DNA of 63,670 nucleotides, filler included, from Jimgerdemannia flammicorona (GCA_003990765.1; 3 parts of 3 records of this genome joined end to end with filler, not necessarily neighbours in it); one strand, 5' to 3'. Shown: positions 12,533-50,900, numbered from the whole stretch's first letter. Numbers and translations are program-made. The notes: a model not told the origin generated them from the letters alone.

Positions 12533-13044
12533 ATGCCTCAGGGATGAGACCATCTATTCAGGAGGAAGTTGTGATAGATGGCCAAATTTGGAAGAAGGAA
12601 ATAGGGAATAGATACTTGATCGCACTCAGTCCCAAAGTAGTATAGCCTTATAGTTAGCAGTTCTCGATTTTGACATTGTCTAAATTCTTAGACATTGTCT
12701 AAATTTTTAGACATTATCCAAATTGAACATCCCGATTTAGTATAGCATTTAGACATTGTCCAAATATTTTGACAAAGTCCAAATGACTCATTTATTACTT
12801 AGCCACCCTCTCATAGTTAGCAAACTTATATAAATAACCCAGTATCTTCGAGTGAATAAACCTCAGATCAAAATAGTTCAAAGCAAAGAGATAGCAAAGG
12901 AACTAGTAAGCCTGTGGGCAGATACACTTCGAACTCACTCACTCTCCCCTGTAACTCAAAGGACTCTAAGGAGTCAGAGAAGATCAAGTTTTCAAGATAC
13001 AGAAATCCAACATACTTTCAAGAGTAAGCATCTGCTACATTACA

Positions 13045-13954
13045 ATACTTAAGAAAAGAGAAATGTAAGGATATATCTTTATAACAATATTATAGAATCT
13101 GCTAACACCTTCCTAGATATACTATATACTCCAGAAATCAGTAAAAAACTATTTTTAATAAGAAATATAATATCTTATAGCAATAAAGAAATATATATAC
13201 ATATAAAGAATATAACAATATATGATTTATATAATAATAAGATAATGATGGCTTTGAAATATAGTAATCTTTATATGATCAATAGAATGCTAAATAATTT
13301 AAAAGTCTCTATATATATAAGGATTATATGTATCTAATATATTCAATATATAGTATTAATACTTAAGATATATCTATAAGATAAGCCTTGAACATATAAT
13401 AAAGAGTAAATATATTAGTAGATTGCTGCTGAATATATATCTCAGAGATAATTTCTTCTGTAAGAATTATATAGTGAATAAAGTATTTCAGTAACTATTT
13501 GAGGAATAGTTAAAGTATATATCCAGGATCCTCAATATTATATATATATAGAAATTTGTAGGCTGATACATATGCTATCATACTCTAAAAAGAAGTATTT
13601 CATCATATTTATTAATAATTATATATATAAGGCATATATATACTTCCTATTAGTGAAGAGTGAAGTACTGAAGAAATTCAAAAAATTCAAAGTGATCACT
13701 AAGATTGAAATAGAACATAAAATATATACTATATAATTAAATAATAAATATAAATATATCAATGATATATTTAGATAATTCCTGAAAAAAATAGTATATA
13801 TATAATATCAAATGATGGCTTCTTATATATCTCAGCAAAATAGTATAGCTGAGCAATTTAACTATACAGTTATAGAAATAACTTATAGGCTAATTAATGT
13901 AATAGGATTAAGATACTCTTATTGGGACAAAGCTATCAATATAGTAATGTATAT
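13045..13954 (+). mobile_element. Relic Copia element, continuation (pre-integrase and integrase)
   Basis: Decayed Copia integrase motif SQQNSIAEQFNYTVIEI...YWDKAINIVMYI at ~13830-13954; flanked by Gypsy insertions. Confidence 0.6.
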
Positions 13955-20740: not shown

Positions 20741-21160
20741 TGTAAGCGCACAACCTCCAAGCCACCGAAATTACACATCACCCTCTGAACAAGCCACTGA
20801 AATCACACGTGACCTCTGAATAAATCTGGAAATCACCTGCTTGATCACAAAGCTGAGTCAAACCGAAGTCACAGCACACAAAGCTGAGTCAATATGAAGT
20901 CACGGAACACAAGATTTATACAAATGGAATCTTACCAATCAGGACCAAATGCATATATACCAAGCACCGAGACGCATCGAATCAGAGAACCAAAACAAAA
21001 CAACAACCACAACTTCCAAACATACAAACATGACCACTGAGATCTACAACTGTATCCGTGCTGACATTTGGAATGCCATTGTCAACCGAGCCACACCCCC
21101 TCTGCCCCTCATGAATATCCATAGCCTGGCACCCCTCTACTTCGTGGAAGCCCGATGGAA
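20741..21160 (+). mobile_element. Start of a probable young LTR (family E) inserted in the family B dUTPase, cut by an assembly gap
   Basis: Abrupt TGTAAGCG start; CpG retained; short direct repeat CACAAAGCTGAGTCAA twice; ORF from ATG 21030 runs into the gap. Confidence 0.55.
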
Positions 21161-21260
21161 NNNNNNNNNNNNNNNNNNNNNNNNNNNNNNNNNNNNNNNN
21201 NNNNTTAATTAATTAANNNNNNNNNNNNNNNNNNNNNNNNNNNNNNNNNNNNNNNNNNNN
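21161..21260. other. Assembly gap with artificial linker
   Basis: N44-TTAATTAATTAA-N44. Confidence 0.97.
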
Positions 21261-21339
21261 TTTTTTATAGTCTCTTAGACTCCTTTATTACAAACTATCT
21301 AATACAATAATGCAGAACCACACTCACTACTAATCCTAT

Positions 21340-24300
21340 AACATATATAGAAGTAGAGTCCTTCAGCCAACTCCTTCCTTCTATCTCACCCTACTATCAT
21401 CTAATACCAGAAACCCTTGACTCCACAGTACAATGTCCTGTACCTTCTTTAAAGGCCCCTGGCTGAAGTTGCCTCCCCTGATACCACCACCCCTGAACCA
21501 CCTCCTGTATCAGCCACCTCCACTGCTCCACCATCTCTCCAATCTCCATCCATGGGTCTTGTTCAAAAATCCACTGCCAAGCACTGCCATTAAGACTCAG
21601 ACCCCCAAAATTCAACCTAAGTCCCCCCAAATATCACCAATTTCTCCTACCAGCTGGCACTTGACCACCAGACTGGCCAGATCCTCCGCCCTTCGTCTCT
21701 CTGGGCCCCAGTAATCTTCCAGACTCCTCCAAAACCCTTCCATGCCTGGACATGCCCCCAGAACATGTTCCAGTGTCTGAACAACCTCTCCATCCACCTC
21801 ATTACACCACTCACAGTCTCGACAGCCATCCACCTCCATCCAGCCTGTCCAATAGCTCAGCATCACATTACATCTCAAAAACTGCCACCAAACCACCCAG
21901 TATTTGGGGGGCACCATCTTGCATACCAAGGTTCCCCACTTCCAAATTCGAACCCACTCTCAGTTCTCACCAAAACCAGCTCTCTGCCAACCAGATGGCC
22001 ATCTCTCCAGAGGGCCAGACCTGATCCACTCTATCACCTCAACCAGGGAGTACTCCTTCAGACCATGGTCACCCATGCACAGATCACCCAGTTGCCACCA
22101 TCTCTGCTCAGGGTCCACCCCCACCTCTATCTCTGGACCTGCCAACTCCATGACCAGCTAGGCCTCTACAATACCCCACCAGAACCCCTTGAAACACAGC
22201 CTACCCACACTCCCAACCTGAAGCAAGCCCCGCATATCCTTCCAGACCTCACCACGAGGGCAGAACTGGACCTCCCAATTGTCCATGGCCAGCCTGCCCC
22301 AACCTTCCTCACTAAGTTCTATCAGTCAGTGCCCCCACCAACCCCGAAGTACCTTCAGTCAGCGCCTGAAATCCACTAGCCCCAGGCTGCCATCAGAAGT
22401 CCTCATCACTAAAGTCTTCCATCTAATCTGCAGATGCCTCTTATACCATATCCACCCTTCTACAATCTTCTTCAACCACTGCACCACCCACCCTGGAAAA
22501 TCCAGATGATAACCCAGATACCACAGTTTGGGCAGCCAATACACATTCAAGACTACTATCCTGCCAACCAAAGAGAAGCTCCTTTCTGACCAACCTATCA
22601 ATGCACCTTCCAGTCTCTGAATCAATCCACACCACCACTCCCTTGGCAGGACTGTCCCATACACTGAGAACCAGATACCCAGATACTGAACAGTACTCCC
22701 TGCAGCTACCAATTGTCTGAATTATCCATATCCCCCCAGGCCAGCACCAAGTTCCATTGTCTCACACTTGCCCCAGTTCAACTTTGCCCCTGCCAGCCTC
22801 TCATACTGACCCACCCCTTCTTGTAGGACTACTACATCCTCCTGACTGCCCAACCCTACCACCATGTCATCTGCAAAGGCACCCAACTTCCAGACTACAT
22901 CTCCCATCCACAGTCCAGAGAGTCACCCCTTGCCATACCAACAAAGGCTCTAGAGAGAGTACATAAAGAAGGGGGGAGAGAGGATCCCCCTGTGGTACCC
23001 CTCACCCCAAGGCAAACTCCGGTCCACACCATCCATTCATCATCACCACAGCTCAGCATCCCCATATCAAGCCCATCAGTTGCCCTGCCTCTACTACACT
23101 GAACTCTGCCCTCCTCAGAACAGCCTCCAGGTAACTCCACTGCACTCTGTCATAGGCCTTCTCTTGATCCAGAAAGACCATCTGTCCATCTATCTGCTGG
23201 CTCCTACAGCCCTCCAAGACATTCTGCACCCAAGCAGTACTATCTCTGATCTGCCTCCCCTTGACAAAGCCATGCTGCTCTTCTCCAACTAGCGTACCAA
23301 CATATTGCTGCATCCTCTCTACCAGAATCTTCAACACCAACTTTCTATCCACATTCAGCAGCATGATAGGTCACCAATTGTGCCACACTCATCGATCTCC
23401 CTTTTTCTTATATAGAAGAGAGACTAGTCCCAAGGAACTATTGCCAATCCAGCTACCCTCCTTCAGAACAGCATTGGCCATCTCCACCAACCAGTTACCA
23501 AACTCGGCCTTGAACTCCTTCTAGAATTCCCAGGGCAACCCATCCTCCCCAGGAGATGAACCAGTCTGCATCTTCCTCAGTACTTTCAATACTTCATCAA
23601 GAGACACCTCCCTCATGACTGCCTCCCCTATCTCAGGTATTGCTGTCACTGGCCAATTAGTCACCATATTATCAATATCCTCCCCAAACCCAGCCTCCTC
23701 TGCATACTCCCCACCATCTTGCCAAAGAGCTTGCCATTGACCAGATACCTCCCCTAGCATGTCAGCAATTCCAGAGACCTTCACTCCATCTTCACGCAAA
23801 ACTGAGGCCCAACTATGTCACACTTGCCTGGCCTTCAAAACACCAGACAGATATCTTGTCGGCCTCTCTTCTTCTTCCAACTGTCTAGCTTGCAGCCTGG
23901 CCAGCAGGCCATCCACCACCCTGGTCTCAGACACTCTTAAATCTGCCTGCAGCTCCACCACCTCTAATGCCAACTGGTGGTATACCTCTCCAGACAAGTT
24001 CCCCTTTTCCAAAAGCTTCAATTGCCATCTCAGCCCCTTTTCAACTCTCCTTTTCTTGTCCTTTCATTCCTTCCCAGCTACTTCACCAACATCCTGCCAG
24101 TAAGCCCCAGCCAAATGTTTGAATTTACCCCACCATTCTGCTATCAACTGCCCTTCATTCTGTCACTACAAAACTTCCTATCTCATAACCATCACAAATG
24201 CATCCCTCTCCTTCTTCCTCTTAAGTAAGGCTACATTGAGGCACCAGTGCCCTCCACCACTGCTTGCCACTTGAAATCTACCACAAACCTCCACTCTCCA

Positions 24301-24993
24301 ATGATTAGACCAAGGGCACCAGTGCACCTCTGCAGTGTCCAGTACATTGCCCCAGCACTCCACTACTAGTACCCAATCTATTCATGTCTCAACCAACATT
24401 GTTCCAACTGGATGCCACCAGATAAAAGGTCCCAACTTATCCCCCTGTTGTTGATGAATGCCATCCACCAAACCCATGTCACACTCCACCTGAAGCCACT
24501 GAGAAAGTCCAGAGGATACTGTGACTCCTGCTCCACCATCAGACCTATCCAGTGCACGATTATGCACCATGTTAAAATCTCCCCCCAGAATGTCCAAAGC
24601 AACCACCTCCCTACCATCCCATGCCAGCTATCTCTCAACCCATTGCTTTCACTCTCTGCCAACTGCAGGGAGGTAAACTGAGCCAACTGTCAAACCATTA
24701 CCAGCCCCACCTTTTAGTCATCCCCAAATCAGTCTGTCACCATAGATCTCTACCTCCACCAGCTCGCCTTTGCCAACACCAACCAGGACGCCCACCTGCT
24801 TATTCCAACCTGCTCCACCATACCATTTTTTACTCCACATCTCAAAGTCTGACTTGCCATAAGCCCAAACATCCTGAAGAAACACAACATTATACCTCCT
24901 GACTTTAAGCCATCTGAAAAGCCGCCATCTTTTAACACCATCCCGCAATCTATTGACATTGATTGATAAAATATGTAGGTTGTTTATCATCAT
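21340..24993 (-). pseudogene. LINE ORF2 (APE endonuclease, RT, Cys-rich C-terminus)
   Basis: Motifs as listed for the element; C-terminal CRDCEWC...LEHVLGAC. End coordinate approximate. Confidence 0.85.
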
Positions 24994-25005
24994 TAAGGAA
25001 ATTGT

Positions 25006-26874
25006 TTAAAGCTCAGCTGAGACTGCCACCACATTCTCAGCCCTTCCTCGAACAATCTCTCACTGGTCCTTACAAATTGCCCTCCAGATTCGATCACCAT
25101 TAGCACTGCTGCAGAAAAGGTCCACTCTCTCTGTTGCCACCTTCCTGATATCAGCCATCCTGCTCTCGTCAACATCATATTCTTCATCATCTAGCAGGGC
25201 AGCTACCATTGCCATCACCAGCTTAGGCCCCTGCATCACTATATTGAGGAATCCTTCCCATACCTCCTGAGATCCATGAAACATATCCACTTCCTTAATG
25301 TCTTCCTCAGCCAGCTCCTCAAGTACTGCCTGATACCAGCTCTCTGCCATCATCACCAGGGGCCCAGGAGTTGATGGTCTTGGGGTCCTGCTCAGCTCCT
25401 GCAGTTGCTCTCTGTCTGCCAACACATCAGAAGCCACATCTACCAGCTCATCCTCCTTGGTAACTTTCTCCAAATGAATAACCTCATCAGCTTCTGGGCA
25501 CTCCCAATGGACATTCACCACCTCTGCCATATGGGTATCCTCCACCTGAGTCTCCAGCACCACTTCATCATCAACTTCAAAGCCTCCTTCACCAACCTCC
25601 TCCTTATCTGCCCACTTTCCTCTCACCAGTGCATGTGCCAAGTTCTCCACACCACCCAGCTGGGAGAAGGACACCTCTGCTGCCTCCACACCTTCCATCT
25701 GATTCTTGGTCACCTCTACTCTTGCCTCCTCTTCTACAGCTGCCCCTTGAAGTGCCGCCTGCAGATGCTCCCAGTTCCCTTTCCTCCACCTCTTCTACTT
25801 GCCATCAGCCTTGATCCAGACCCAATCCTTGGCATACTCCTCCCACTTCCTCTTTCACAGCTCCTTGGCAGCCTCTCTCTCCTCCAGAGCAATCGCCAAC
25901 TCTTTCTCCTTCTGTTCTGCTCCCTTCCTCCTCCAGACCTTGCACTCCTGCCCCCCAATTCTAATCCCCTCAGGCCAATTATGGCCCAGCTCTGTAGCCT
26001 CCTTGCCTTCCAGTTGCAGCATCACCTTGCAGTTGCCATTCCTCAATTTGGTGTCCTCCCAGAACATGAACCTGAAGTCCACTATCTCACCATATCCACC
26101 TAGTGCCTCTACCATCATCTCCTTGATCTCCTGTCTGCCCAGGGTCAGCAAACCTTCCACCACCAGCCGAACAGTATGTGGATCCCACCTCAGACACCTT
26201 GTCATCCCAATCCGGATACCTTTGACCATCATCCCTTTCTCCAGCACCTTCACCATTGCATCCTCCTCCACAAATCCAATCTCCACAGCCTCCGCCGAAG
26301 GGATGAACTTCAGAGATTCTGCCCCAGCCACTTCCTCTCCCACCAACCTCAGAACCTCCCTCGCTGATATTGCCAATCCCAGAAAGTTTGCCGAGACTAC
26401 CCATGTTGACACCAATTTGTGGAAGAAAGGCCTCACTACCAACTTGCCTGTCTCTGCTGCCAGAGTCACCTTTCCTTTGGTCCCTGAAATACCTATAGTC
26501 ATCCTACTAGGCACAGCTGCGCCACCAGCAGTCCTCTCCCCAGCCACCTGCCCAGCCACAGAAGAACCAGTCCCCAGCATCCCACCACCAGACCCCTGTC
26601 CCCTGCTGGCCACCTGACCCATCACCTGACTTGTCACCTGACCCCTCCCCCTGTCAACACTACACCCTCTCTGTCCAACCCCCATGGACCTAGCCATAGC
26701 CCTCCTACTCCCAACCACTGTATGCCAGGCCTTGGTCCCACCAGTCCTCCCCTGTCCACCAGCTCTTCCTGCAGCCACACCAGCCCCTGCAGCAGCTGCA
26801 AAGCTCTTGGGAATGCCCAGACCAGACCTCCTCCTCTCCAGATGCTCAGAGCTAGAGGAATCTTAACTAGCCAT
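25006..26874 (-). pseudogene. LINE ORF1
   Basis: ATG at 26874 is in frame with pieces 25855-26778 and 25060-25713; stop TAA at 25008-25006; low-complexity N-terminus and acidic C-terminus. Confidence 0.75.
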
Positions 26875-27030
26875 AATGCCAAAACTTGACAGTTTTTCTT
26901 GAAATTTGTTGTACCTTGTAGGTAGACTCTTGCCGCACAATGTACACCAGTATGTTCGAAATAAAAACTTGAAAACATGTTGTCTTTTGCTGAAAGATGT
27001 CTGTATGGCTTAGCTCTTTCTGAATGATTC

Positions 27031-30000
27031 CAATCTTGAGAGAGTCTATATATGTTCCATATTAGTTAATAATATAGCCAAGATAGGAAATCTCAATTTC
27101 TGCAAACTTATACTTCTTGAGCTTGATATAAAGACCATGCTATCTTAGCTTCTCTATCATCTGCTGGATATACTGTAGATATTCTTCAGCTATCTTGCTG
27201 TAGATAATAATATCATCTATATAAACTATCATCTATCTTCCCATATTATAGTGGAAGATTTTATTCATCATTTGCTGAAAGCTTGCTGGTGTATTGCATA
27301 TTCCAAATAGTATTCTCAGATAGACATAGATTCTGTCTGGGATAATGAAGGCTGATTTTTCACTTGCTGCTTTAATAAGACTAATCTAGTAGAATTCTGA
27401 GTATAAATTCAAGATACTGTAATACTATACTTCATCTCCCAGAGTTATAAGAATGTCACTGATGAGAGGTAGTGGTTGGAAATCCTTCTTTATAGCTAGG
27501 TTGAGCTTCCTGTAATCAGTGCAGAGTCTTGGGGCAAATTCTTCTAGTTTACTTCCTTTTTTTGAGACCAATACAACTGGTGAAGTCCAAGGACTGCTGG
27601 CTTCTTTGATGATATCAACTTCTTCTATTCACTTAATTTCTTCTCTGAGCTATTTGTGATAGGCTAGTGGAATTGGTCTTACTTTTTGGTAGATTGGTTT
27701 GGTATCTCCTATGTCTATATCATGATAGTAGTATGAAATCTTTCTCTTGATATTCTTGAAGTCTGTGGCTAGGACATTCTCAAATTTGTAAGGTATCTTC
27801 TTGAGTTCCTTCTTGAGTGGAAATTCATTTTCAAAGATATAACTATACTTATTTGTAGTTTTCTCCTTCTTGTGATCTAGTTCTGTGATCTTGATACTAA
27901 TGAATACTCCTCTTCTAGTAGATCTGAATCCTTTTCTTCCTCTTTCTGTTTCCTCCAACTTCTTGACTTCTATGATCTTTGGCTGAAGAACTAGAAAGAT
28001 CAACATCTATGCCAATCAGTCTTTCTTCTTGATTGGAAATAGAATTGTATGGTTGTGATTTCTAGTAATGAGTAGTATTTCTCAAATATAGTCTGAATTG
28101 ATAATTCCTCCTTCAATAGTAATCTCACTCTTGGCCAGACTGCTTCTTGTCTTGAGAATCCTAACATAGTCCTTTAGAATGGTCATTTTCAGACCAGTTA
28201 CAAGCAGAGTAATTGTCTGGAGCTCTAGTATAGTTCTTCTACTATGGTAATATCCATTTCAGCTGTATTCTCTGACATGTATTCTGGTAAAACTACATTA
28301 GAATGAATTTTCCAAATCTTGACCTTGATTTCTTCTTTGTTGTCACTATTCTCTAGGAAAGCTGGTGGCTTATCATTCTCTTCCTCTTTCTTTTCTTATC
28401 TTACCTATTTCTTAAGAGCCTTCTGTCATCTTTTATAGTAGATTTTCTTAATTCTACTAATATACATACTAGTAGTAATCATCAATATGTTTCATATAGT
28501 ACATCTTGATTCCATAAGAGTAGACTTCTTGTGGTATATATTCTTTAATGATCCTTTTGCACCATTCTTCTTTACTAATCCATCTGACTTTCTTCTTCTT
28601 TTTCTAGGTAGTTACTATGTAGACTTCTTCTTGCTCACTTTCTTCTTTCTCTATCTCAGGCAGTACTCCTTTATTGACATTGATGGAAATTTACATCTTC
28701 TGACCTTGGTAAATGATCTACATCTTCTGGGCATTGAGATCAATTATTACTCTGGCTTTATGAAGCCACTGGTTGCTGATGAGGATGTCATAGTTGGTAG
28801 TATTAATTACAATTACATCTACTGGAATAGTTGCTCCTCTAAACTAGATGAGAACATTTCAGATCTTTCTCAGAAGTGTGGTTCTTATACCATCTACTGT
28901 AATGAATACTAATTTGGTTATTTCTTCAACCTCTCAACCTAGGTAGTCTGCTGCATTTTGCTGAGGAGACATTCTTCTACTCTAGTATCAATAATGGCCT
29001 CAAAGATTCTATCTTCAATTTAATAGGTTATATAGGCAGACATCTTGCAATTATCTTCACTCTCTTCTCCAGAGTCTTCTTGAATATTGTTGGCTTCAGT
29101 TATCTTCTATCTTTATTCTTTAGTTATCTCAGCAAGTCTATATCTCATTTGCTGTCTGAATATGGATATTTCTGCCAGCTGGCCAAAGGTTGTATTGACC
29201 TTTTGTTGACTGAGATCCTTGAAGATATCATATTTGAAGGTCTTGGTTTTGTGCAGCTTCTTCTTCTTTTCTCCTTCACTAGCTGGGGTAGTTTCTTAGA
29301 TAATATCTTAGACAGTCTATTCCAGCTCTGTATCTTGATCCATTTCTTTACCTTAGCTTTCTGTAGCAGTTTCTATCTGTTTTTCTACAGAGTTCTTCTT
29401 GGGTCTTCCTGGTGGTCTCTTGTAGAGTTGCTTGTGGACATTCTTCTTGACAGTCTCAGCAGAGTAGGCTTCCCATTCTTCTTTATCTGATTCTCCAATC
29501 TCCTCAAAGGTGATAGTATTGGCCTGTTCCTTGTTTTGAGTAGCATTGCTTGGCTGGGCCTTGTGTTTGGTTTTGCTCATATATTCATATAAGTAGTAGC
29601 CTTCTTCTCTACAGTTGTAGCAGATATCTCTCTTTTTGTCTATAGTAATAGTAAACTTCTGAACTGGGCAGCAGTCTCTTCCTCTAATTTATTTTATTAT
29701 ATCTCCTAGTTGGGCTGTCATTTTGGCAAATTTCTTAGCAAGTTCCTCTATTGGAATATTATTTCTCTGCTACTCAGTAGCTCTTGGCTGAGGTATGTTT
29801 TGATTGATCACTATGGTAGAGATCATGCTGGTTGCCTTAGGTGCTTCAATTCTAACTCTAGTAACTCTTTCCATTATGTGATCTTATGGGTGTCTGGCTA
29901 TCCAATATTGCTAGGCATAGATAATCTTTTGTACTAGATTCAGAACTACTAGTGATGAGCAGATGGCCAGAGCTATCTCTGGATGTACTCTTTTCATAAA

Positions 30001-35931: not shown

Positions 35932-36774
35932 CCCAGGGGGTTTCTGTGGCCTGGGGGGTTTCTACCCCCCAATATGTAAAAAGGACTGACTAGATATTGT
36001 CCATTTTGGCAGATTTCCAAGCCAGAGCTCCTGGGGCTGGACAAAGGACAGGTATCTACCAACACAGCCTGATAGTATGAGGTCCTAGGCCAAGGGTTCA
36101 CCCAACTGTATGCTTGTATCACATCAGGATATATTGAGTACAACATTTCTCTGCCCACACACACAGACAACAATATTACCCCAGTAATATTTTATATCCT
36201 AAAAAGGAAGGGCCAAACCTGGGAGGATAGCAGCAGAGTCTGGTACAATCTCACCTATAGTTTTAGTTATGGCCAACATGGCTGTCCTATTCTAACCACA
36301 CAATTACCATGACACCATTGCCTTTGAGGAGAGCTCAGACATAACAGTTGTTGTACTCACAATAGATGATAGGCTCATCAAGGTCTAGGACTGGCAGGTG
36401 GAGCAGTTTTTGTAAAGGTTAGACAATCTTTTATAAGGGTTTAGCAGTTATTTTATGTAGATTAGGCAGTCTTTTGTGGGGGATTGGGCTGGCAGCTGGG
36501 TGCCTCTTCTATAGCATTAGTTTAGCCATTATGCCAGGCCCTACCAGCCCCTTGGTTCTGCTCCATAGTGCTGCCAGTGTGGTACTGCAGCACAGGGCCA
36601 GAGTGTCCATGGGACTCAAACCAGTAATGGGGCCCAAATCTGTGGTAGACTTTGATGGCCAGAAGTATCCTCTGATCACCAGAAATGCTCTCTGACTATC
36701 AGAAGCACCCTCTGACTGCTAGAAGCACTCTCCAACCACCAGAAGTACTCTCTAACCCAGACTCAGACTCCTTG

Positions 36775-37505
36775 GCAGCTTGGGGTTGCCTCTATACTAC
36801 TGACAGAAAGCTGCAAATTTTGTACACTCTCTCTACCAACTCTGCTGACCCCTGGCTCAGGCACAGGCTGCTTGTGGGTGCCCCATACAGCTGGCAGAAG
36901 GCTGCAAATTTTGCACACTCCTTCTGCCAACTCTCTTGTCCCAGACACTTGTAGCTTGAGACTGTCTCTTGCTACTGGTAGAGGGCCACAAATTTTGTAT
37001 GCTCTCTCTGCTGACCCTGTGCCCTCCAATCCAGGCACTGACAGCTTGGGGCTACTCCTTGCTGCTGGCAGAGGGCTACAAATTTTGCATGCTCTCTCTA
37101 TCAATATCTCTGTCCTGAACACTTGTAGCTTGGGGTTGCCCCTTGCTGCCAGTGGAGAACTGCAAATTTTGTATGCTCCCTCTACTAACCCCATACCCAC
37201 CAACTCAGACACTGACAGCTTGGAGCTATCTCTTACTGCTAGTGGAGGGCTATAAATTTTACATACTACCTCTGCCTACCCCACTCCCTCTGTCTATCTC
37301 TCTATCTCAGACACTTGTAGCTTGGGGCTTCTCCTTGCTGCTGGTAGAGGGCTGCAAATTTTGCATACTCCCTCTGCTGACCTCATGCCCACTGACCCCA
37401 CTCACTGATCCTGCCCACTGACCTGGGTACTGATAGCTTAGGGCTGCCCCTGTTGCTGATAGAGGGCCACAAATTTTGTACACTCCCTTTACTATTACCA
37501 ACTCT
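36775..37505. repeat. Eight-copy palindromic tandem repeat (84-115 bp period)
   Basis: TGCAAATTTTGCA-type cores at 36812, 36903, 36987, 37077, 37161, 37251, 37353 and 37468. Confidence 0.85.
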
Positions 37506-38858: not shown

Positions 38859-39100
38859 TGTAATAGTGACCCCAGAATGATGACATCAGTACAGGAGACA
38901 GCCTTTCCTTGTAAGCCACCAGATTGGAGCACAAGAAGATTATATGGCATATGAGATGAGCAATGATGACCAACTGTGAGTCATTGTGACCACAGCACAA
39001 GCATCCTGAAGAATATAAAAGAAGGATCAAGGAACTGCAGTAGCAGCAACCAACAAGAACCACCAATCCCAAAATAGCTCAAAGACTTATGACAAATGAA

Positions 39101-39919
39101 ATGCCTGCTACCCACCAAATATCAAGGTCAAGGAATCACTAAGGTATCTCAGTCGAGGAAAGGATGTTCCAAGACATCAGAAGAGCCATAGGGATCTGCT
39201 CAAGAAGGACTCCTAGTGTCAACCTGGGAACTGCAGACCCTTATCACTTTATTCTCTATTGCTGCAAAATGGAAACAAGGATCACCATTGCTACCGAATG
39301 CCTCCAAATATGGCAGGAGTATGAAATAGGAAACCTTCTCTGCTGGGAGTTCCCAGAGGCCAGCACCCAAGAGCTACAAGATGCCACTCCCATAGATATA
39401 TATGAAATGAGGATAGCTAAGAAGATCCATCAGATCTTCAGGCATGCACCATGGTCAATCCCCAACTTGGAGTATATTAGAGTCTCAGACTTCAGAGACC
39501 TGTCATCCCACTGAGTCAATGTGCTAGAAGCCAGGGTGCCTACAGAAGCCCAGTCTACTATCACCCTCAACAGTGAAGAAGTAGAAGACTTCTGGCACCC
39601 TATCCTTCAGGACAACCCAGATCAATTCCTGCAAGGATTGATCTCAGTATTTCAAGGCCCAAGCATCTGAGTTAGATCTCCCCAAGACCCCACATTTGTT
39701 TCTTATTTTGTGGAAGAGAACCTCATAGACTGGAGAGCTCCAGACCTTGTCTCTGATTTCCCCACCACAGCCAAACATGATGATGTCATCGATGACGTCA
39801 TCCCATGTGACATACCCGAAGTACGTGAAACGTGTAACCTATATGATGAATTCACGGATCTCATCTCCTTCAGTGATGATGATGATGAAGCCCCCATAAT
39901 CCTGAACTTTCTGCTCTAA
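39101..39919 (+). pseudogene. LTR-encoded accessory ORF in the family B 5' LTR
   Basis: ATG at 39101; pieces 39164-39514 and 39710-39919 in frame. Confidence 0.85.
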
Positions 39920-42418
39920 GTTCTTTGTTACACTGGATAATGCCAGCACCGGTATTCTCATGTAACATTGGATAATGCCAGCACTGGTATTCTGAGGTGA
40001 CTTGAAATTGTTCCAGTACCAGCATTTTGATGTGACACTAAATAATGCCAGCATCCTGAACCTGTACAACTATCAATGCCAGCCCTGGAACTTAGTAGTT
40101 TTAGTTATTGGAATTTATATTTAGCTTTATATCTTAGCAACCATTGAATTATATTTTGTATAAATACCTCTCTTATTTCCTCTGAAATAAAGTCAGTTCC
40201 TCTTAGTGCAATACACACACTTTCTTGCAAGCAATCTAAGAGATAACAAGACAGTTAAAGATAAGAAGTTTGAGGACTATAAGACCTTGGGAAGGCACTC
40301 CAATAAGAACTTGCTTATAACAAACTTGAGTTAGTCTAAGAGATATACCTTGAGGAGAATCTGGCATATTTGAAGGACTCAGCGACCACTATGTGACAAC
40401 TTGGTGCCCATTGACTGGTGATTCAAGATGAATCCCTCACTTTCAAGCTGAAAAACGAACAACCCCCACAACAACTACCCTGACTACAAGAGTCACCTCT
40501 GTAAGAATTCAAGACAAGATAGAAATGTGTCCCCCCACATTCTATAGATATACTACTGAAGAGTCAATCCTGATCTTCATTGAAGACTTTGAACAATTCA
40601 CCACCATATGAGCCCTTGGTGTGAATGCTCAATTGGCCCTTCTACTAGTCAGCCTTAGAGGACCTGCCAGAGACAAGTTCAATGCAGCCACTATTGCTGA
40701 TACTGGTGCAGCCAAACTCACCAACATAAAGGTCTTCCTCAGAACAACATATTATACCAAAGAGATTAAGCAAGCTCTCAAGGATCAACTCAATACTATC
40801 TGCCAGGGACTTAGTGAAGATCCCAACTCATTCTATACCCGAATTTGCCACCAGATTGTCTTGGCTGGCTATGATGACTGCCTCAAGGAACAAATAGCAG
40901 ATTCAACCTTCCTCAAAGGAGTTCACCCTAAAATTGCCCTAGCAATCTAATATACCCCAGCTGCACTGACCCTTGATCAGAAAGTAGTCTTTGCACAGAG
41001 ATATTGGACTACCAGACACCCTGCCAAACACTCAATGGAGAAAATAACTGGCATCAAGATGGAGTCATCAAAGCCAACTAGTATCTTACCTGCCACAGTT
41101 GTAAACAGACAACCAACCCCACCTACCCCCAAGACAGCCAAAGCTGACCCAGTGGAGGAACTTGCCAAGCAGTTTGCCAAGATGACTGCACACCTTAGTG
41201 ATGTTATTAGAGAAGTCTGAAGCACCAACAGGAGACCAGTGCAGAGATTTGCAGCTGCTACAGAAGAACGCAATATCACATACTTCAGATGTGGAGAAGA
41301 AGGCCACTATGTAAAGAGTTGCATGACTGAAACAAGACATAAAGCCCAACCAAGCAATACTAGCAGAACCAGAGAACAAACCAATGCAGTAGTCATCGAG
41401 GAGATTAGTGATACTGATGATGAAGAATACTACGAGGAGCTCGAATTCTACCCTGCTACTGAAGGTACCAGAATCTGGTCTAAGCCCTATGATAAGAAGA
41501 GCAACAGCAAGCCAGTTGGAAGACCAAAGAAGACCCCAGCTGTCACTATTCAAAGTAAGACCCAACCCAAAGAGATTGATCAAGACATGGAGTTAGACAA
41601 AGCTGTCTACCAAATCATTGAAGGCACTACTCCAGTCTCAGGAGAAAGCGAAAGCAAGAAGGAACAGAAGCTGTGCAAGACCAAGATCCACCAGTATGAC
41701 ATCTACAAGGACCTCAAGGAATAGAAGATCAATGCTACCTTTGGACAGCTAGCTAAAGTCCCTGCCTTCAGACAGCAGTTGAGAGTAGGACTTGCAACTA
41801 CTGCCAAGAATCAAGAGTACAAGATTGTAGAAGCTCACAATGTACAGGAAGAATCTGAGAACTCAGGTAAAGAATCCGAAGACTAGTGCAAGACATCAGC
41901 CTATACCCCCTGCCAGATTGAAGACTGTATCTTTGATGCCATCATTGATACTGGTGCTGGAGGATGCCTTATGAGCAAGAAGGCAATTGACTGTCTAGGT
42001 TGGAATATTGAAGAGTCCACCAAGATGGTCTATGTCACAGCAGATGATACACGAGCTACCCCCCTTGGCAAAATCCAAGAAGTCTTCATCAAGATAGGAG
42101 GAGTCACTATTCCAGTAGACATGATTGTTACAAGTGCCACCAACTATGACATCCTCATTGGCAACCAATGGCTTCACAAGGCCAAGGCCATCATTGACCT
42201 CAATGCCCAGAAGATGCAGATCAACTACAGAGGAAGAAAGGTATGAGTTTCTATCAATGTCCACAAAGGAGTCCTACCAGACATGGAGGAGGGAGATGAA
42301 GAAGACACAGAGGTCTTCATGCACTCAGTGAACAAGAACAAGAACAAGACACCCAAGCTCACAGATGAGCAGTGGTACAACAAGATCATCGATGGCTATG
42401 CCCCTCAAGGAAGATGCC

Positions 42419-42518
42419 NNNNNNNNNNNNNNNNNNNNNNNNNNNNNNNNNNNNNNNNNNNNTTAATTAATTAANNNNNNNNNNNNNNNNNNNNNNNNNN
42501 NNNNNNNNNNNNNNNNNN
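42419..42518. other. Assembly gap with artificial linker
   Basis: N44-TTAATTAATTAA-N44. Confidence 0.97.
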
Positions 42519-42528
42519 CGAGGAAAGG

Positions 42529-43269
42529 ATGTTTCAAGACATCAGAAGAGCCATGAGGACCTGCTCAAGAAGGACTCCTAGTGTCAACCTGGGTACTGCA
42601 GACCCTTATCACTTTATTCTCTACCACTGCGAAATGGAAATAAGAATCACCATTGCTACCGAATGCCTCCAAATGTGGCAGGAGTATGAAATAGGAAACC
42701 TCCTCTGCTGGGAGTTCCCACAGACCAGCACCCAAGAGCTACAAGATGCCACTCTCATGGATATACATGAAACAAGGACAGGTAAGAAGATCCATCAGAT
42801 CTTCAGGCATGTACCATGGTTGATCCCCAACTTGGAGTATGTTAGAGTCTCAGATTTCAGAGACCTATCATCCCACCGTATCAATGCACTAGAAGCCAGG
42901 GTGGCTATAGAAGCCCAGTCCACTATCACCCTCAACAGCGAAGAAGTAGAAGACTTCTGGCACCCTATCCTCCAGGACAACCCAGATCAATTCCTGCAAG
43001 GATTGATCTCAGTATTCCAAGGCCCAAGTATCTGGGTTAGATCTCCCCAAGACCCCACATTTGTTCCTTATTTTGTGGAAGAGAACCTCATAGACTGGAG
43101 AGCTCCAGACCTTGTCCCTGATTTCCCCGCCACAGCCGAACGTGATGACGTCATCGATGACATCATCCCATGTAACATCGAAGCACGCAAAAATGACAAA
43201 TTCGTGGATCTTATCTCTTTCAGTGATGATGATAATGAAGCCCCCATAATCCTGAACTTTCTGCTCTAA
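42529..43269 (+). CDS. LTR-encoded accessory protein in the family B 3' LTR; 246 aa uninterrupted, N-terminus lost in the gap
   Basis: Open frame MFQDIRRAM...WQEYEIGNLL...KKIHQIFRHVPW...SVFQGPSI...DLISFSDDDNEAPIILNFLL*. Confidence 0.8.
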   Translation: MFQDIRRAMRTCSRRTPSVNLGTADPYHFILYHCEMEIRITIATECLQMWQEYEIGNLLCWEFPQTSTQELQDATLMDIHETRTGKKIHQIFRHVPWLIPNLEYVRVSDFRDLSSHRINALEARVAIEAQSTITLNSEEVEDFWHPILQDNPDQFLQGLISVFQGPSIWVRSPQDPTFVPYFVEENLIDWRAPDLVPDFPATAERDDVIDDIIPCNIEARKNDKFVDLISFSDDDNEAPIILNFLL

Positions 43270-44020
43270 GTTCTTTGTTACACTGAATAATGCCAGCACT
43301 GGTATTCTCATGTAACACTGGATAATGCCAGTACCAGCATTCTGAGGTGATGCGAAATTATTCCAGTACTGATATTTTGATGTGATACTAAATAATGCCA
43401 ACCCTGGAACTTAGTAGTTTTAGTTATTGGAATTTATATTTAGCTTTATATCTTTGCAACCATTGAATTATATTTTGTATAAATACCTCTCTTATTTCCT
43501 CTGAAATAAAGTCAGTCTTCTTAGTACAATACACACACTTCCTTGCAAGCAATCTAAGAGATAACAAGACAGTTAAAGATAAGAAGTTTGAGGACTATAA
43601 GACCTTGGGAAGGCACTCTAATAAGAACTTGCTTATAACAACTTGAGTTAGTCTAAGAGATATATCTTGAAGAGAATCTGGTATATTTGAAGGACTCAGC
43701 AACCACTACATGACAGTATATATAGCTTTTGTCTAACAAATAATATTTAAAACTCTATTACTTCTTTTCTCAATAGAATAGATGGGGTCTTTTAGTCAAG
43801 AAGTATAATATGCAAGACTCTCTCCACTACTCTCTTCTTCTCTCCACAACTCTTCTCTCCTCACTACTCTCCTCTCTGGACTACTTCTCTCTCTCTTCAC
43901 CCTCTCTCTATAATATCTGGTCACTCTCAAGTTCTATACCCTTGCCATTATCAGCAGTTCTTTCCTCTCTCTGATATTTTTTTGCTTTTGCCAATCTATA
44001 TTTATCTATAATATATATAT

Positions 44021-45587
44021 TGTCATGTAGTAGTCGCTGAGTCCTTCAAATATGCTAGATTCTCTTCAAGGTGTATCTCTTAGACTAACTCAAGTTTGTT
44101 ATAAGCAAGTTCTTATTGGAGTGCCTTCCCAATGTCTTATAGTCCTCAAACTTCTTATCTTTTAACTGTCTTGTTATCTCTTAGATTACTTGCAAGAGAT
44201 TATGTATGTATAAGTGAACTGGAACTTGACTGACTTTATTTCAGAGGAAATAAAAGGGGTATTTATACAAAATATAATTCAATAGTTGCTAAGATATACA
44301 GCTAAATATAAATTCCAATAATTAAAATAAAATGCCAGGATAGAAAAAACTACTAAGTTTCAGGGTCAGTACTGATGGTTGTATAGGTTCAGGATGCTGG
44401 TATAATTCAGTGTTATATCAAAATGCCAGTGCTGGAACAATTTCACATCACCTCAGAATGCCAGTACTGGCATTATCCAGTGTTATCTTAGAATGCCAGT
44501 GCTGGTATTATTCAGTATAACAAGGAACTTAGAGCAGAAAGTTCATGACTATGGGGGCTTCATCCTCATTGTCAGAGGTCAGGATATCTTTGAAGGAGAT
44601 GAGGTCTGCAAATTTATCATATAGGTTGTATGTTTTATATACTTCGATGTTACATGGGATGATGTCATCACTGATGATGTCATCATGTTTGGCAGTAGGG
44701 AAATCAGGGGCTCTCTAATCTATGAGGTTCTTTACCACAAAATAAGGGACAATGAAGGATCTTGGAGAGGTCCAACCTAGATACTTGATCCTTGGAATAC
44801 TGAGATCAATCCTTGCAGAAATTGGTCTAGGTTGTTCTGAAGGATAGGATGCCAGTAGTTTTCTACTTCATCACTATTGAGGGTGATGGTGGACTGGGCT
44901 TCTGTAGCCACCTGGACTTCTAGTACATTGATATGGCAGAATGCCAGATCTCTGAAATCTGAGACTCTAATATACTCCAAGTTAGGGATTGACCATGGTG
45001 CATGCCTAAAGATCTGATAGATCTTCTTAGCTGTCCTCATTTTGCATATATCCATGGGGATGGCATCTTGTAGCTCTTGAGTGCTAGCTTGTGGGAACTC
45101 CTGGCAGAGGAGGTTTTCTATTTCATACTCCTACTATATTTGGAGGCATTTGGTAGTAATAGTGATCCTGGTTTCCATTTCACAGCAGTAGAGGATATAG
45201 TAATAAGGGTTACCAGTACCCAGGTTGACACTAGGAGTCCTTCTTGAGTGGGTCCTCATAGCTCTTCTGATGTCTTGAAACATCCTTTCTTCAACTGAGG
45301 TACCTTGGTAGTTCCTTGACATTGAGGTTTGGCAAGCAGTAGGCATTTTGTTTGTAATAAGTCTTTGGGCTATTTTGGGATTGGTGGGTCTTGTTGGTTG
45401 CTGCTACTGTAGTTCCTTAATTCTTCTTTTATATTCCTCAAGATACCATACTGTGGTCACAGTGACTCACAGTTGGTCATCATTGCTCATCTCATATGCT
45501 GTATGATCTCCTTGTGCTCCGATCTGGTGGCTTGTAAGGACAGGCTGTCTCTTATGCTGATATCATCATCCTGAGGTCACTGTTACA
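44021..45587 (-). mobile_element. Solo LTR, family B (1567 bp), carrying the decayed accessory ORF
   Basis: TG...CA ends; TSD ATAT on both sides; no PBS or PPT; ORF pieces 45134-45346 and 44777-45055. Confidence 0.92.
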
Positions 45588-47979
45588 ATATTTAGACTTA
45601 CTCCTGAGTGAAATAAAACTGCCACAAATTGCAACTATCTAGTTAAGATTACTGCTATTAATTGTAAACAAATTTTATATCAAAGAATTCTCTACAATCA
45701 AAGTATTCTCACCAGAGCACAAAGTCAAAAAGAGCTCTATCTAGAAGTTCTTGAGTGGAATATTCTTTTGGTTCATAGGATTTGTTAGGCCTCATATAAT
45801 AATATATTAATATTTGATTGTAGCCCCTCTCAGAGCTTTCAGAAAGCCAAAGTCATTGTGGAATATCTCCTTTTGATGATGATATTTAACATATGATTTA
45901 TTAAGAGTAGAATTACTAATAAGAACTTCAAGAAGACTATCTCCATAGATAACTTTCTGGTATTCATTTTTATTAGATAGTTACCTTCACTCTCACCAGA
46001 ACTCTCACTCACCCTAAACAGAATGTAACTATCCTGAAAATTCTTCTCTTTATCAATAAGCCTACAATACTAGTACTATATAAAATACTCTCAGTAGATA
46101 TTAATAATTACATACTACTAGGTAAGAAATATAATACAGATCTGATCATTATTAACCAGTTCTATATCAAAGAGTTCTCTCTGATTATTATTAGACCAAT
46201 TGATAGTGAGGACATTGTATATAATAGTAGGCAAATTTGAGAATATTTCTGAAGAAATTTGCAAAGAAGATCAAGATGGAGGAGAAGTAGAAAAAGATTG
46301 TTTATTGTGATCAAGAGTACATAGTTGTGGTATTTTGAGCAATTTCATTTATCTCATTACAATTGATCCAATGAATCCTGAGATTATCTCTTAATCTATA
46401 CTTATGACCCATTATTTCTCTTTCTCTGATCTGTAAATTCTGATGATACTTCTATCCCAATCTTATAACTAGATGATCTACTAATAGCTGCAATATATAT
46501 AACTACTTTTCTCTTACTTATATCTCTTAATCAATATATGTTTAACCTCAGCCTTATATACAGAAATAGTTTGAATATATTATATATGGAGTAATTAGTA
46601 GCTAGTAGTTAGAGAAGATAGTAGGTAGAAATGAGTTGTTTAGTAGAGATAGATAGTTGCATAGATTCTTGATTAGTCTTCACTAGATGTTTGGATAGAG
46701 TAATATAGAATTAATTTATTACTATAAGTGAAAAAGTGAAATAAAGATTAAATTTAAATAAAACTATATTAATAATGAAAAAAAATATTTCAAATCAGAT
46801 TGATAACTATAAATTATTCATTATTATATATATATATATATTTCTCTCTTCCTTCCAAATGATAAAATAACTACATCTTTTATATTCATACAACTACTAT
46901 ATCTTCATACTTGATACTAAATATCAATTATATAAAACTTTGATAAAAGCTAACTATCAAACTCAAATTTTAGAATAACTCTAAATAAGAAAAGTATACT
47001 TATGGATGAATCTCTATTCTTTGAATTGATCAATGAGATTTTATATATAAATATCATTACATAATAGTGTTTTGCTACTATATTATCTAAATTTGAGTCT
47101 AAAGCTATAAAGGTTTAATATTAATATATAGAGGTTCAATATAGAAACTATCTAGATAAAAGAGAATTTAATAGAGTTGTTTATATAGATTATTACAAAT
47201 AGATATCAAAGATATAGATAAGATTTGATCACAATATATAAGAGGGGTTTGTTTTGTATCAGTGAATATTTTATAGATAACTTTTTTATATAATAATTTA
47301 AGTATATTTTTACTGAAATACTAATCTTTAAAATTATATATAAAAGGTTTTCTAATATTAGAGAATGATGTTATATCTACAGAACCTAAGTTACTTCAAA
47401 TTATCTTTAAGATATTAGAAAGAAGTTTCAGAAGCAGAATATTATATATTTATTTTAAATAAATATATTCTTTTTTTGTTGAATCTATAATAAATAAATA
47501 TATAATTTATATACATATTAATATAATTTCTTATCTATTATAAAATAAAAATAATATCCAGTATACTTAAATTATAATTTTTATAGTTTAATATATAGAT
47601 TGTAATTATAATTATTTAGCTTTTAAGTAGCTTTTAATATAAACTTAGTTTAGATCTAAATATTAAATATAATATTATAAAATTAAGATTATTAATATTA
47701 TTATTATTAATATATTATTAGTAGTTGTTAGATTTTTAATAAAATCTTTAAAAGTAATAATAATCTTTATTTTTTTAGATAGTATTTATTTAGAGTGAAA
47801 TTAAACTATAAAAATAAATTTTTAATAATTTATTTTTAATATAAATAATTAGTGATAAAGATAAAAGCTTAAGATTTAAATAAATTAGCTCTTGAGTTCT
47901 TGTTTCAAACTCTTGTTTTAAGTTTTTATTTTAAGTTATTTGACTTATATTTAGATATAATGATATCTAATTTTATTAT

Positions 47980-50900
47980 ACTTAGATCTGTTGAAAAGCT
48001 ATAATTTTGTTTAGTAATTATTTCAACTTGAAGTACTCTTGAAACTTAGTATGATTTTTGTAGGTCCAAAGTATAAAGCATATAATAGGTGGTTCTATAT
48101 AATGCTTTCAATACTGTTGAAAGATTCCTCTATTACTGATAACTTAGTAGAACACTATTGTCTCTCTATAGTTTACTAGACAGTACTTGTGATCTTGAGA
48201 GCTATAGTAGTACTTTATTAGCTAGCTATGGTACTTCTTAAGTTAGTTTCAGTAGATAGTAGTAGAGATAATTATATCTAATTGTTTTTGTAGCCAAAAG
48301 ATAATTTCTTTTATATTTTATACAAGGTAGGGTTCTTTTTACTTGAGCTTTAGATTTATATAACTCTGAAGATTATATTATATTCTAATACATTAAAACT
48401 TTATCTCCTACCTTCATAATCTCCGAGGGCTTATAGATCTTCTCTATATTATTTTATATATTATAATATCTGTATCTTGATTATATAATCTTCTACCATA
48501 TTTCTTATTTAGTGCACTTTCTGTATCTCAGTATCTACTCATTTCTATACTGTATCTTATTGAATAATAGAGTTCTTTCAGAACTTTCTTCTCAAAACAG
48601 CAATTTCTGAGAGATAAAGTAAGTACTTTGTAATTATATATCTTAGAGAGATAATATTATTAGAAGATAGTAGTTCCAATTTCTTTAGTTATTATAGATC
48701 CTAGTAATAACATCCTTGAGAGTCTTATTGGTCCTTTCTATCTGTCTATTTTTCTAAGAATGATAAGCTATGGTTCAAATGTGACAAATCTTATACTTCT
48801 TAGTGAAAATCTTAAAGAGCTAGTTTATAAATTCTATTTCTCTATCCATTATTACTTTCTCTAGAGCCTTAAATTAGCAGATGATTTCTCTATAGAAGAA
48901 ATCAGTAATTGACTATATATTGACCTCTTTGAGAGGTCCTTCTTTTATCTATTTTATAAAGAGGTCTATAATAATAATGATTTATCAGTTATCAGTCAAT
49001 ATTAGGAGTAGAAGACAAATTATATTTGTTGCAATATATATGAGCAAATAATACTAGTTCTATATCTACTGACCCTAGTATTTGATTGCTTCTGTTTTTG
49101 GTATTTTTTACAAATCTTGACAAATTATCTGATATCTTCTACAATTCCTAATAACTATTTTTCTTCTTACTTTATCATAGATATTTGTTTCTTCTAGATA
49201 AGCAAGTTTGTATATTAACTTTATTACTTATTCCTTCTTATGCTCTAGTATAACTAGTAATTTTTCTTTCTTTAGTATATCTTTATCAGTTTCAAATTGT
49301 TTCCAAGTTCTGTTGATAATTGTTTGTATCTATTCTTCTAGATATTGGGAAATATTTCACTGTTCCAGATAGTTGATAATTCTGTAGTAGAGTTTTTTAT
49401 TCATTTTGGTTTTACTGATTGTAGATGCTTTAAAATATATATAAGAGAGTATCTATACTAGTATTAGTTCTTTCTAACTTACAAATATTCCTTTAACAAT
49501 AGCTAGATAAGGGCTGAATGATCAGTCAGAATGGTAAAATATCTTCTTATATATAAGATTGTAGTAAAACCTTTCTATAGTCCCAAATAACTATAAGATA
49601 CTTCAACTTATAGGATTCATATTCTCTTTCTCCTCTGCAAGTTTCTCAGCTAAGATATATAATTACATATTCTACTATATCCTTCTTTTGAACAAGAACA
49701 ACTCCTAGTCTAATTGAGCTTATATATATCTATCTGCAGAATCAACTCTTAAGATCAGTCAAGACTTCTCAAGATAAGTACTTGGGTCATTTAGACTTTG
49801 AGGTATTCAAAAGCTTATTACTGTCTGCTAGACTATTGAAACTTAGTATCGTTTATATAAATATGATCTATAATATTGATGAATACTTTAATAAACCTCT
49901 CATAATAAGTAGTGAGTCCTTTATAGGCTTGAGCTTTAGTAACTGTGGTGGGTCTTAGATAGACTGCTATGACTTAAATCTTAATAGAGTCTGTATGGGT
50001 TTCAGTCTGATAAATAATATATCTAAGGTAGGAGATTTTAATTTCTGCAAACTTATACTTCTTGAATTTGATGAATATATCATACTCTCTCAATATCTGT
50101 AAGATTCAGCAGATATAGTTCAGATGTTCTTTAACTATCTTGCTGAAGATAATTATATGATCTATTTAGACCACTATCTATTTTTCTATATTATCTCAAT
50201 AGATCTTATTTATCATTCTCTGGAAACTTACTGGGGTATTAGCTATTTTAAATAATATTTACAGCTAGATATAGATTCTATCTGAGATAATGAAGGCTGA
50301 ATTTTACTAGCTTATTTGGTGAGACTGATTTGATAGAATTCTTGGTATAAATCCAAGATGGTGTAGTATTGTACTTTATCTCCTAGGTTAACAGAATATT
50401 ACTAATGAGAGATAGTAGTTAGTAATCCTTCTTAGTAATTTTATTGAGCTTTCTATAGTCTGTATATAGTCTTGAGACAAATTCTCCCAGCTTGCTTTCT
50501 TTTTTTAGAGTTAGTATAATTAGTGAGAACTATAGATTTATAGTCTTCTTGATGATGCTAGCTTCTTATATCTGCTTGATCTCTTCTCTGAAATATTCAT
50601 GATATACTGGTAGAATTGATCTTATCCTTTGATAGATTGGCTCTATTTCTCTTTTGTCTATATCATAATAGCAGTATAATATCTTTTTTTTAGTATTCTT
50701 GAAATCAGTAGCAAGGATATCTTCAAATTCATACAATAGCTACTTAGGTTCCTTCTTAAATGGAAATTTATTTCCAATAGTATGATTATACTTATCTGTA
50801 ATTTCCTCCTTTTGTAGTCTAGTTTGGTAATTTTGGTACTAATAAAAACTCCTCTTTCTATATATCTGAATCTTTTTCTTTCTTTTTCTGATTTCTCTCT

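Follow-up and report, generated by a model that had tools for sequence, protein, structure and literature searches.

LTR retrotransposons are usually treated as gag-pol elements only, and accessory genes are what separates complex from simple retroviruses. An open reading frame (ORF) lying in the sense orientation inside the long terminal repeats (LTRs) of a Ty3/Gypsy family, referred to here as ORF3, raises the question of whether it is a gene and, if it is, what its product does for the element. The question was addressed in a window of 63,670 nucleotides, the whole stretch of DNA that was analysed, which is eukaryotic and rich in transposons. Looked up by its RT (reverse transcriptase), it matched a mixture of eukaryote taxa, with every score under 0.9, and its host was not placed thereby. 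The window consists of three joined stretches of about 21.16 kb each. The two spacers, at 21161-21260 and 42419-42518, are identical (N44-TTAATTAATTAA-N44) and divide the window, which is thus to be read as three separate pieces and not as one locus. An apparent element at 38859-43715 crosses a join, so its halves are not necessarily neighbours.

A sense reading frame in the U3 region of family-B LTRs

Self-BLAST and inspection of the ends gave five copies of one LTR, family B (B1-B5). B1 (13955-15547, minus strand), delimited by self-BLAST, is old and AT-rich. B2 (15956-17470, minus strand) is a 3′ LTR with the purine tract AGGAGAAAGA and pol ahead of it, and B3 (38859-40398, plus strand, with TGTAAT...GTGACA ends) is a 5′ LTR followed by a primer-binding site and then by gag and protease. 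B4 (42519-43715, plus strand) is a fragment whose 5′ end is lost to the join. B5 (44021-45587, minus strand) is a solo LTR with ATAT on either flank, which is weak evidence in surroundings that are AT-rich. Family-B starts all read TGTAA(C/T)AGTGA, and the ends read TGACA except in the decayed B1 (TGATA). Similarity among B2, B3 and B4 is 88-89%; to these three, B5 shows 80-83% and B1 about 69%.

The primer-binding site (TGGTGCCCATT, 40402-40412, plus strand) lies three bases past the B3 LTR, and the same word follows the 5′ LTR of a second family, A, at 6788-6798. Downstream of it are gag, with a CCHC knuckle, and an aspartic protease; upstream of B2, Pfam detected pol with integrase and reverse transcriptase (RT). 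The TG...CA LTR ends, primer-binding site, purine tract and PR-RT-IN order identify the carrier as Ty3/Gypsy. A dUTPase domain is placed by Pfam between protease and RT in the pol of both families (A: 8976-9269, plus strand, E 2e-17; B: 20440-20802, minus strand, E 2e-11).

An interval of some 400 bp separates the 3′ LTR B2 from the much older LTR B1; it is 3′ internal sequence (15548-15955) with 75% similarity to 17471-17872. The region 13955-17872 fits a nested arrangement, a B element inserted into an older B element. In the contigs of one run (X1, its kind a guess), LTR parts are present at high depth and the internal region is barely covered, a pattern with no bearing on expression.

ORF3, in sense and about 271 codons long, was found ahead of the TATA box in each of the five family-B LTRs, in agreement with the sequence-only reading of this DNA, which had put its length at about 275 codons. 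The 271-residue length, the start MP(A/P)xR and the end ...LNFLL were set by intact database homologues. The copy in B4 (42520-43269, plus strand) has 249 codons and a stop with no internal stop codon. It is the only open copy in the window, and its earlier description as open holds for what the join has left: B4 begins at the spacer, and the first 22 or so codons are therefore absent. The remaining copies lie at 39101-39919 in B3 (plus strand, three internal stops, ORF stop at 39917-39919), 17228 to 16401 in B2 (minus strand, three stops), about 15287 to 14460 in B1 (minus strand, many stops) and 45346 to 44529 in B5 (minus strand, stops and one frameshift near 44750). Every copy whose start is present is broken, and the sole open copy is the one without a start.

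Since 5′, 3′ and solo LTRs all carry it, ORF3 is part of the LTR and not a misdrawn piece of the internal region. In B3 its stop lies 240 nt before the TATA box TATAAATACC at 40159, and AATAAA follows within about 25 nt of that TATA. The ORF thus ends upstream of both signals, which places the gene in U3.

The B copies of the window were compared with P0002, one of the intact homologues, and with the X1 contigs. Relative to intact homologues, most changes are C>T or G>A, by which Arg codons become Cys, His, Trp or stop. In a count of 95 changed places the leading classes were T>C with 26, C>T with 24, G>A with 23 and A>G with 10. The oldest copies are down to 20-30% G+C. The base changes fit decay by deamination of methylated or repeat-targeted DNA.

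Homologues in families C and A

A third family, C, is represented by the stretch 842-3281 (minus strand), with TGTGAC...GTCACA ends 2440 bp apart. AT-rich non-element DNA lies upstream of it and a TGG-starting stretch immediately after its end. Judged by these ends and by the TGG-starting stretch it is a likely LTR, likely rather than proven because no second copy was found within the window. Its ORF3 (3064-2078, minus strand, two internal stops) is 29% identical to that of family B over 178 aa (E 5e-18), and the homology proposed earlier for this ORF is thereby borne out. Past the LTR and the TGG stretch, positions 1-801 (minus strand) hold an open frame of 267 codons rich in P, Q and E. This frame matches nothing in Pfam and nothing else in the window, and it may be the beginning of a family-C gag that leaves the window.

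Family A is an element at 6309-13045 (plus strand) with 477-bp LTRs, 94% alike, and with gag, protease, dUTPase, RT, integrase and ORF3. Here ORF3 (12071-12532, plus strand; 153 codons, three internal stops) lies within the body of the element. Its ATG and the pol stop share 11 nt (+1 frame), and 37 nt separate its end from the 3′ LTR; the purine tract is downstream of it. When single sequences were compared, A matched B and C marginally (E 0.005 to 0.06). A B/C profile holding no A-type sequence was then aligned by hhalign with a profile of eight intact A-type database proteins, and the two matched over 79 columns with a probability of 84.6% and an E value of 6.8e-6. The sequence-only reading had reported a shorter family-A homologue after integrase and named a profile alignment between families as the check; by that alignment the family-A ORF belongs with the others.

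A profile HMM run over the six frames of the window recovered seven ORF3 copies and one faint A-type remnant at 47934-48229 (minus strand; tblastn E 2e-4; HMM 47934-48065, E 0.2), which sits behind a decayed pol at 51813 to 48182. Among families A, B and C the proteins are 15-29% identical, and the position of ORF3 is the same.

Selection on ORF3 and its database relatives

Among the B copies, dN/dS was 0.21-0.47 in ten of ten pairs (Nei-Gojobori, CpG sites included), with bootstrap upper bounds of 0.34-0.94, all below 1; the same columns read in the other two frames gave 0.67-1.22. Of 304 pattern matches in a metagenome scan, one proved to be a relative: the 1345-bp contig L001, with an intact ORF3 of 323 codons. 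Its DNA aligns with the B LTRs in the ORF part only. Against B2-B4 its dN/dS was 0.11-0.19 in frame and 0.93-1.91 off frame (CpG sites included), with synonymous sites near saturation (pS about 0.7). The purifying selection claimed at the outset is thus supported, dN/dS being 0.11-0.47 in the ORF3 frame against 0.67-1.91 in the others.

Intact natural ORFs are known from P0003 (271 aa), P0002 (247), P0010 (342), P0008 (214), P0020 (153) and L001 (323). These natural homologues were used in place of a stop-repaired consensus, and X was written at stops. A word-seeded search of 5.8 billion proteins gave six relatives of 138-271 aa, and the same query found none among 499 candidates of the longer class (437-2000 aa). 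A full HMMER pass over 1.84 billion representatives gave 13 matches at E up to 0.001, six of them at 1e-10. ORF3 is thus a small family, with 13 representatives among 1.84 billion; a wider profile brought in 17 relatives. The HMMER-matched proteins are 40-342 aa long, with the sole exception of P0014 (4156 aa), in which nine short stretches match profile positions 171-207 (E 5e-5). All relatives are on contigs of at most 3 kb and, where the source names them, are called 'hypothetical protein'. No Pol-ORF3 fusion occurs among the database matches of the B/C-type profile. Because the matched proteins are short and none is fused to Pol, ORF3 looks, from sequence, like a stand-alone product.

The same data bear on the possibility that the ORF does nothing, being a chance open frame or a decayed fragment of a host gene caught in the LTR. 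Six of the seven window copies are broken, the open one is cut by the join and the family is tiny, all of which would suit such an origin. Against it, dN/dS is well under 1 in the ORF3 frame only, a result that largely refutes it; the ORF also keeps its position in three element families whose proteins have diverged to 15-29% identity, intact copies exist elsewhere, and the protein database searches found no cellular homologue. A non-functional ORF is scarcely credible on this evidence. ORF3 is very probably the third gene of one dUTPase-bearing Ty3/Gypsy clade, kept by purifying selection for as long as the elements were active. It stands as an orphan gene under clear selection, common to diverged Gypsy families and moved into U3.

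Position of ORF3 relative to the purine tract

The order on the RNA is constant, gag-pol-ORF3-R, with ORF3 always 3′ of pol. What differs is the purine tract. In families B and C it lies upstream of ORF3, so that the whole gene falls in U3 and is copied to both LTRs and into solo LTRs; in family A it lies downstream, which leaves the gene internal. ORF3 may have become part of the LTR when plus-strand priming shifted upstream. The 35-bp repeat units that begin 7 nt past the B ORF3 stop start with TGTNACA, like an LTR start, and they fit an origin by such a shift without proving it.

The idea that the B LTR took its 5′ part from the 3′ terminus of pol was rejected, as local alignment did no better than shuffled sequence: 140 of 300 shuffles in one case and 51 of 300 in another scored as high.

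Putative promoter, polyadenylation and repeat signals around ORF3

The LTRs of families A, B and C and the L001 contig cannot be aligned apart from one shared module, TATAAATA(A/C)C with AATAAA about 22-27 nt from the start of the TATA box (TATA-2). In B3 this main promoter module, TATAAATACC and then AATAAA, occupies 40159-40191 (plus strand). In B4 it lies at 43478-43510 (plus strand) with TATA-2 at 43478-43487, and on the minus strand it lies at 14208-14240 in B1, 16160-16192 in B2 and 44235-44267 in B5. Family C has it at 1620-1651 (minus strand, TATA-2 at 1651-1642), family A at 12829-12860 (plus strand) and L001 near position 1250. With AATAAA so close to TATA, the polyadenylation signal would lie no further downstream than the transcription start and hence in U3.

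A second TATA word precedes ORF3 itself. This TATA-1, the proposed ORF3 promoter, is TATAAAAG in B3 (39014-39021, plus strand), 87 nt before the ATG, and TATTTAAG in family C (3126-3119, minus strand), 62 nt before it. TATA-1 is kept in B1, B2, B3, B5 and L001, and the distance from TATWWAAG to the ATG is 87 nt in B, 64 nt in L001, 62 nt in C and 86 nt in A. Over the 63.7-kb window TATWWAAG was counted 40 times, both strands included, which amounts to roughly one per 3 kb of strand. Chance is an unlikely source of the word in a 60-nt interval in three independent lineages, although the word was chosen after the sequences had been viewed. The family-A word falls within conserved integrase coding sequence (DIKG) and may exist for that reason. 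The B copies are related to one another, and their TATA boxes and repeats accordingly count as one observation.

Tandem repeats fill the interval between ORF3 and the main promoter. The B LTRs carry three to five 35-bp repeats with CCAGYAYYGG near-palindromes there, at 39926-40088 in B3 and 43286-43400 in B4 (both plus strand). CCAGYAYYGG has nine matches against 0.62 expected, eight of the nine in B LTRs. The family-C LTR has at least four copies of 28/55-bp repeats at 1748-2050 (minus strand), likewise between ORF3 and its TATA box. Two of the C-repeat units read CCAGCRTTG on the sense strand, which resembles the CCAGCACTG core of the B repeats.

On this layout ORF3 would have a transcript of its own, directed by the TATA box that precedes its ATG by 62-87 nt and ending at the LTR polyadenylation signal; we judge the chances of this to be about even. 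Each B or C LTR could then be a complete ORF3 expression unit.

Sequence and predicted structure of the ORF3 protein

Searches for a characterised domain, by which the novelty of ORF3 could have been overturned, gave no significant match in Pfam, NCBIfam, PHROGs or PDB sequences. In Pfam no family matched the window copy at E up to 10, and none matched 20 members significantly at E up to 1, the best helix-turn-helix (HTH) row being HTH_Tnp_Mu_2 (E 0.031, 2 of 20 members). The best PHROGs hit was at E 0.0083 in 1 of 19 members; one PDB sequence search had no matches and another had one at E 0.55. In the ESM Atlas the best score was 0.83, under its own bar. No transmembrane segment is present: the maximum 19-residue Kyte-Doolittle value was 0.19-0.74 in seven members. 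ORF3 is therefore not env-like, as had been argued earlier on the same ground.

AlphaFold2 gave a poor model with six sequences (pLDDT 55). With twenty sequences P0008 was modelled with a mean pLDDT of 79 and a pTM of 0.69, residues 20-160 being mostly at 74-97. The model has a helix at 22-35, a 37-residue helix at 51-87 with the conserved W-x-E-Y-E-I-G-H at its end, five short helices packed compactly at 93-154 that carry A-K-K-I-H-Q-I-F-R-H-x-P and D-x(3)-L-S, and a lower-confidence helix at 172-188 over D-N-P-D-Q-x-L-Q-G-L. As modelled, the ORF3 domain is helical and confidently predicted, and it is this domain, not the tail, that is best conserved across families A, B and C.

Foldseek with the two models found nothing significant in the PDB (best E 1.1 and 0.62) or in BFVD (best E 0.15), nor did a wide VIA-align search (best Z 3.9 and 3.8). 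HTH domains of ParB (P1), SopB, VirB and Spo0J recur in the top rows of both models over residues 70-158 or so, with Z 2.9-3.9 and rmsd 3.5-4.5 over 75-82 residues. These values are far under the tool's bar for helical proteins and unrelated folds tie with them, so the ParB-type match is only a lead; no sequence-profile match to HTH families was found. A known fold is thus not established for ORF3, which does not imply a new one.

The ParB-type rows, weak as they are, would suit an integration-targeting factor that replaces a chromodomain by tethering integrase to certain DNA or chromatin sites. The pieces of integrase that were scanned yielded no chromodomain, and the 11-nt overlap of the family-A ATG with the pol stop, in the +1 frame, would permit coupling or fusion to integrase. 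In family B, however, ORF3 is separated from pol by about 600 nt and many stops, and the B/C-type profile matched no fusion of Pol with ORF3. We give a targeting role only a slender chance.

The N-terminus of B-type proteins is Arg-rich (RRAMRTRTRR), with a charge of +4 to +8 over the first 45 residues in P0002 and P0003. This stretch, together with a gene position at the 3′ end as in retroviral regulators, would be expected of a protein that binds the element RNA as an export, packaging or chaperone factor like Rev or Rem. The Arg-rich stretch is, however, not kept in the C or A types, P0019, P0012 and P0020 carry a neutral or negative charge over their first 45 residues, and the fold searches found no RNA-binding fold, which makes an RNA factor very unlikely.

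Past about residue 190 the longer members are predicted to be disordered, and both models show a disordered tail. Counted from residue 160 onward, the four long B-type members analysed have a net charge of -16 to -24, against -6 in P0008, -2 in P0012 and 0 in P0020. The tail has a conserved block, F-x-D-L-I-S-F-[SE], followed by an acidic run, and the conserved ...LNFLL end. FxDLISF occurs in P0002 and P0003, the related TMDLISF and FTNLISF in P0004-P0006, and P0010 has repeats of the kind, DLINF and DLITF. Conserved short motifs, which we take to be putative SUMO-, Atg8- or clathrin-box-like sites, in a strongly acidic disordered tail could make ORF3 an adaptor, its linear motifs serving to recruit a host factor or to neutralise one, in a Nef/Vif-like counter-defence whose targets could include silencing, SUMO, autophagy or trafficking machinery. 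This reading is at odds with the distribution of conservation, which across the three families favours the helical domain over the tail, and with the A-type proteins, in which the acidic tail is missing altogether. An adaptor is, on balance, an unlikely account of the family.

Comparison with retroviral 3′ genes

In MMTV, sag is a sense ORF of about 300 codons wholly in U3, upstream of the LTR promoter and present in both LTRs; Sag is a type II membrane glycoprotein. ORF3 of families B and C is likewise a sense ORF that lies wholly within U3 upstream of the LTR promoter, but it has neither a hydrophobic segment nor a Pfam match and is carried by an LTR retrotransposon that has no env. HIV/SIV nef is a 3′ accessory ORF that crosses the polypurine tract into U3, with partial overlap, and encodes a myristoylated membrane adaptor. 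The difference between families A and B is in the same way one of tract position relative to the gene, whereas Nef is only partly encoded in U3, acts at membranes and has no detected similarity to ORF3. The positional analogy to MMTV sag and HIV nef drawn in the sequence-only reading is thus apt, given the place of ORF3 in U3 in both B and C.

The foamy-virus gene tas/bel1 is a 3′-proximal accessory gene with an internal promoter, a product with an acidic C-terminal region, and response elements in U3. ORF3 resembles it in being 3′-proximal, in its proposed internal TATA box, in its acidic C-terminal region and in the U3 repeats, which are candidate response elements. It differs in that no similarity of sequence or fold to ORF3 was found, and in the A type, which has no acidic tail.

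A putative regulatory role for ORF3

By analogy with Tas, ORF3 may bind the tandem repeats between its own stop and the main TATA box and so activate transcription from the LTR. In the acting protein the partly basic N-terminal part would be followed by the compact helical domain and then by a disordered tail, strongly acidic and studded with hydrophobic residues. A regulatory gene like those of complex retroviruses had been proposed in the sequence-only reading; for that proposal the fold searches supplied weak rows only. A transactivator is favoured here by the combination of a possibly DNA-binding helical core, an acidic hydrophobic tail and promoter-adjacent repeats. The missing tail of the A type implies that a role as activation domain is not general. 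That ORF3 is an LTR transactivator of the foamy-virus Tas kind is on this analogy possible, if doubtful; the broader reading, of a retroelement accessory gene with its own promoter whose product is possibly a Tas-like transactivator, we hold tentatively.

A further step would follow if each B or C LTR holds the whole gene. LTRs, solo ones included, might then go on making an activator that binds U3 repeats throughout the family, a 'public good' outliving the element that produced it. Such a state would date from a move of the polypurine tract to the upstream side of ORF3, which until then had been internal, as it is in family A. Were this the case, it would be a Tas-like regulatory circuit outside retroviruses; we regard it as quite unlikely.

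More generally, should ORF3 regulate the family that carries it, or disarm a host defence, this would go some way towards explaining the very high copy number of these elements, and ORF3 would represent an independent layout of the sag/nef/tas type outside retroviruses.

Additional ORFs in LTR retrotransposons

Sense additional ORFs between pol and the 3′ LTR (aORF-3S) are a recognised class in plants and insects, and those described are mostly env-like with membrane features (PMC7264820). Family-A ORF3 has exactly that position and orientation, and B and C have the same order on the RNA with the gene inside the LTR; ORF3 differs in having no membrane features. In the main text of PMC7264820, none of four phrases that would place an ORF inside the LTR occurs.

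Among fungal elements, a survey of Gypsy retrotransposons draws, for chromoviruses, an 'add. ORF' of unknown function (PMC2864245, Figure 3) and describes dUTPase-bearing Gypsy elements. The likeness to ORF3, an extra gene in fungal Gypsy elements, is here taken from the figure legend alone. Botrytis Boty elements carry the gene brtn (cited in PMC8365987, from which this account is taken), again an extra gene in a fungal Gypsy element, but antisense where ORF3 is sense. In the literature within reach, which excludes subscription journals, no report of a sense ORF inside a fungal Gypsy LTR was found, and matches for ORFs in LTRs mostly concerned MMTV. The earlier statement that no named equivalent is known in fungal Gypsy elements stands for genes inside the LTR, as far as these sources go; extra ORFs as such are already on record (PMC7264820, PMC2864245).

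Annotation pipelines that assume LTRs to be non-coding will miss ORF3, and gene callers will return it as scattered 'hypothetical proteins'.

Other regions of the window

In the region 21300-27100, with 44-51% G+C, GC skew is strongly negative and either strand holds long ORFs, of up to 335 aa; nine ORFs from the region were scanned against Pfam and none matched. ORFs of 170-179 aa, also with no Pfam match, overlap a stretch at 36770-37490 that contains internal tandem repeats, 67-72% alike, at offsets of about 90-350 bp.
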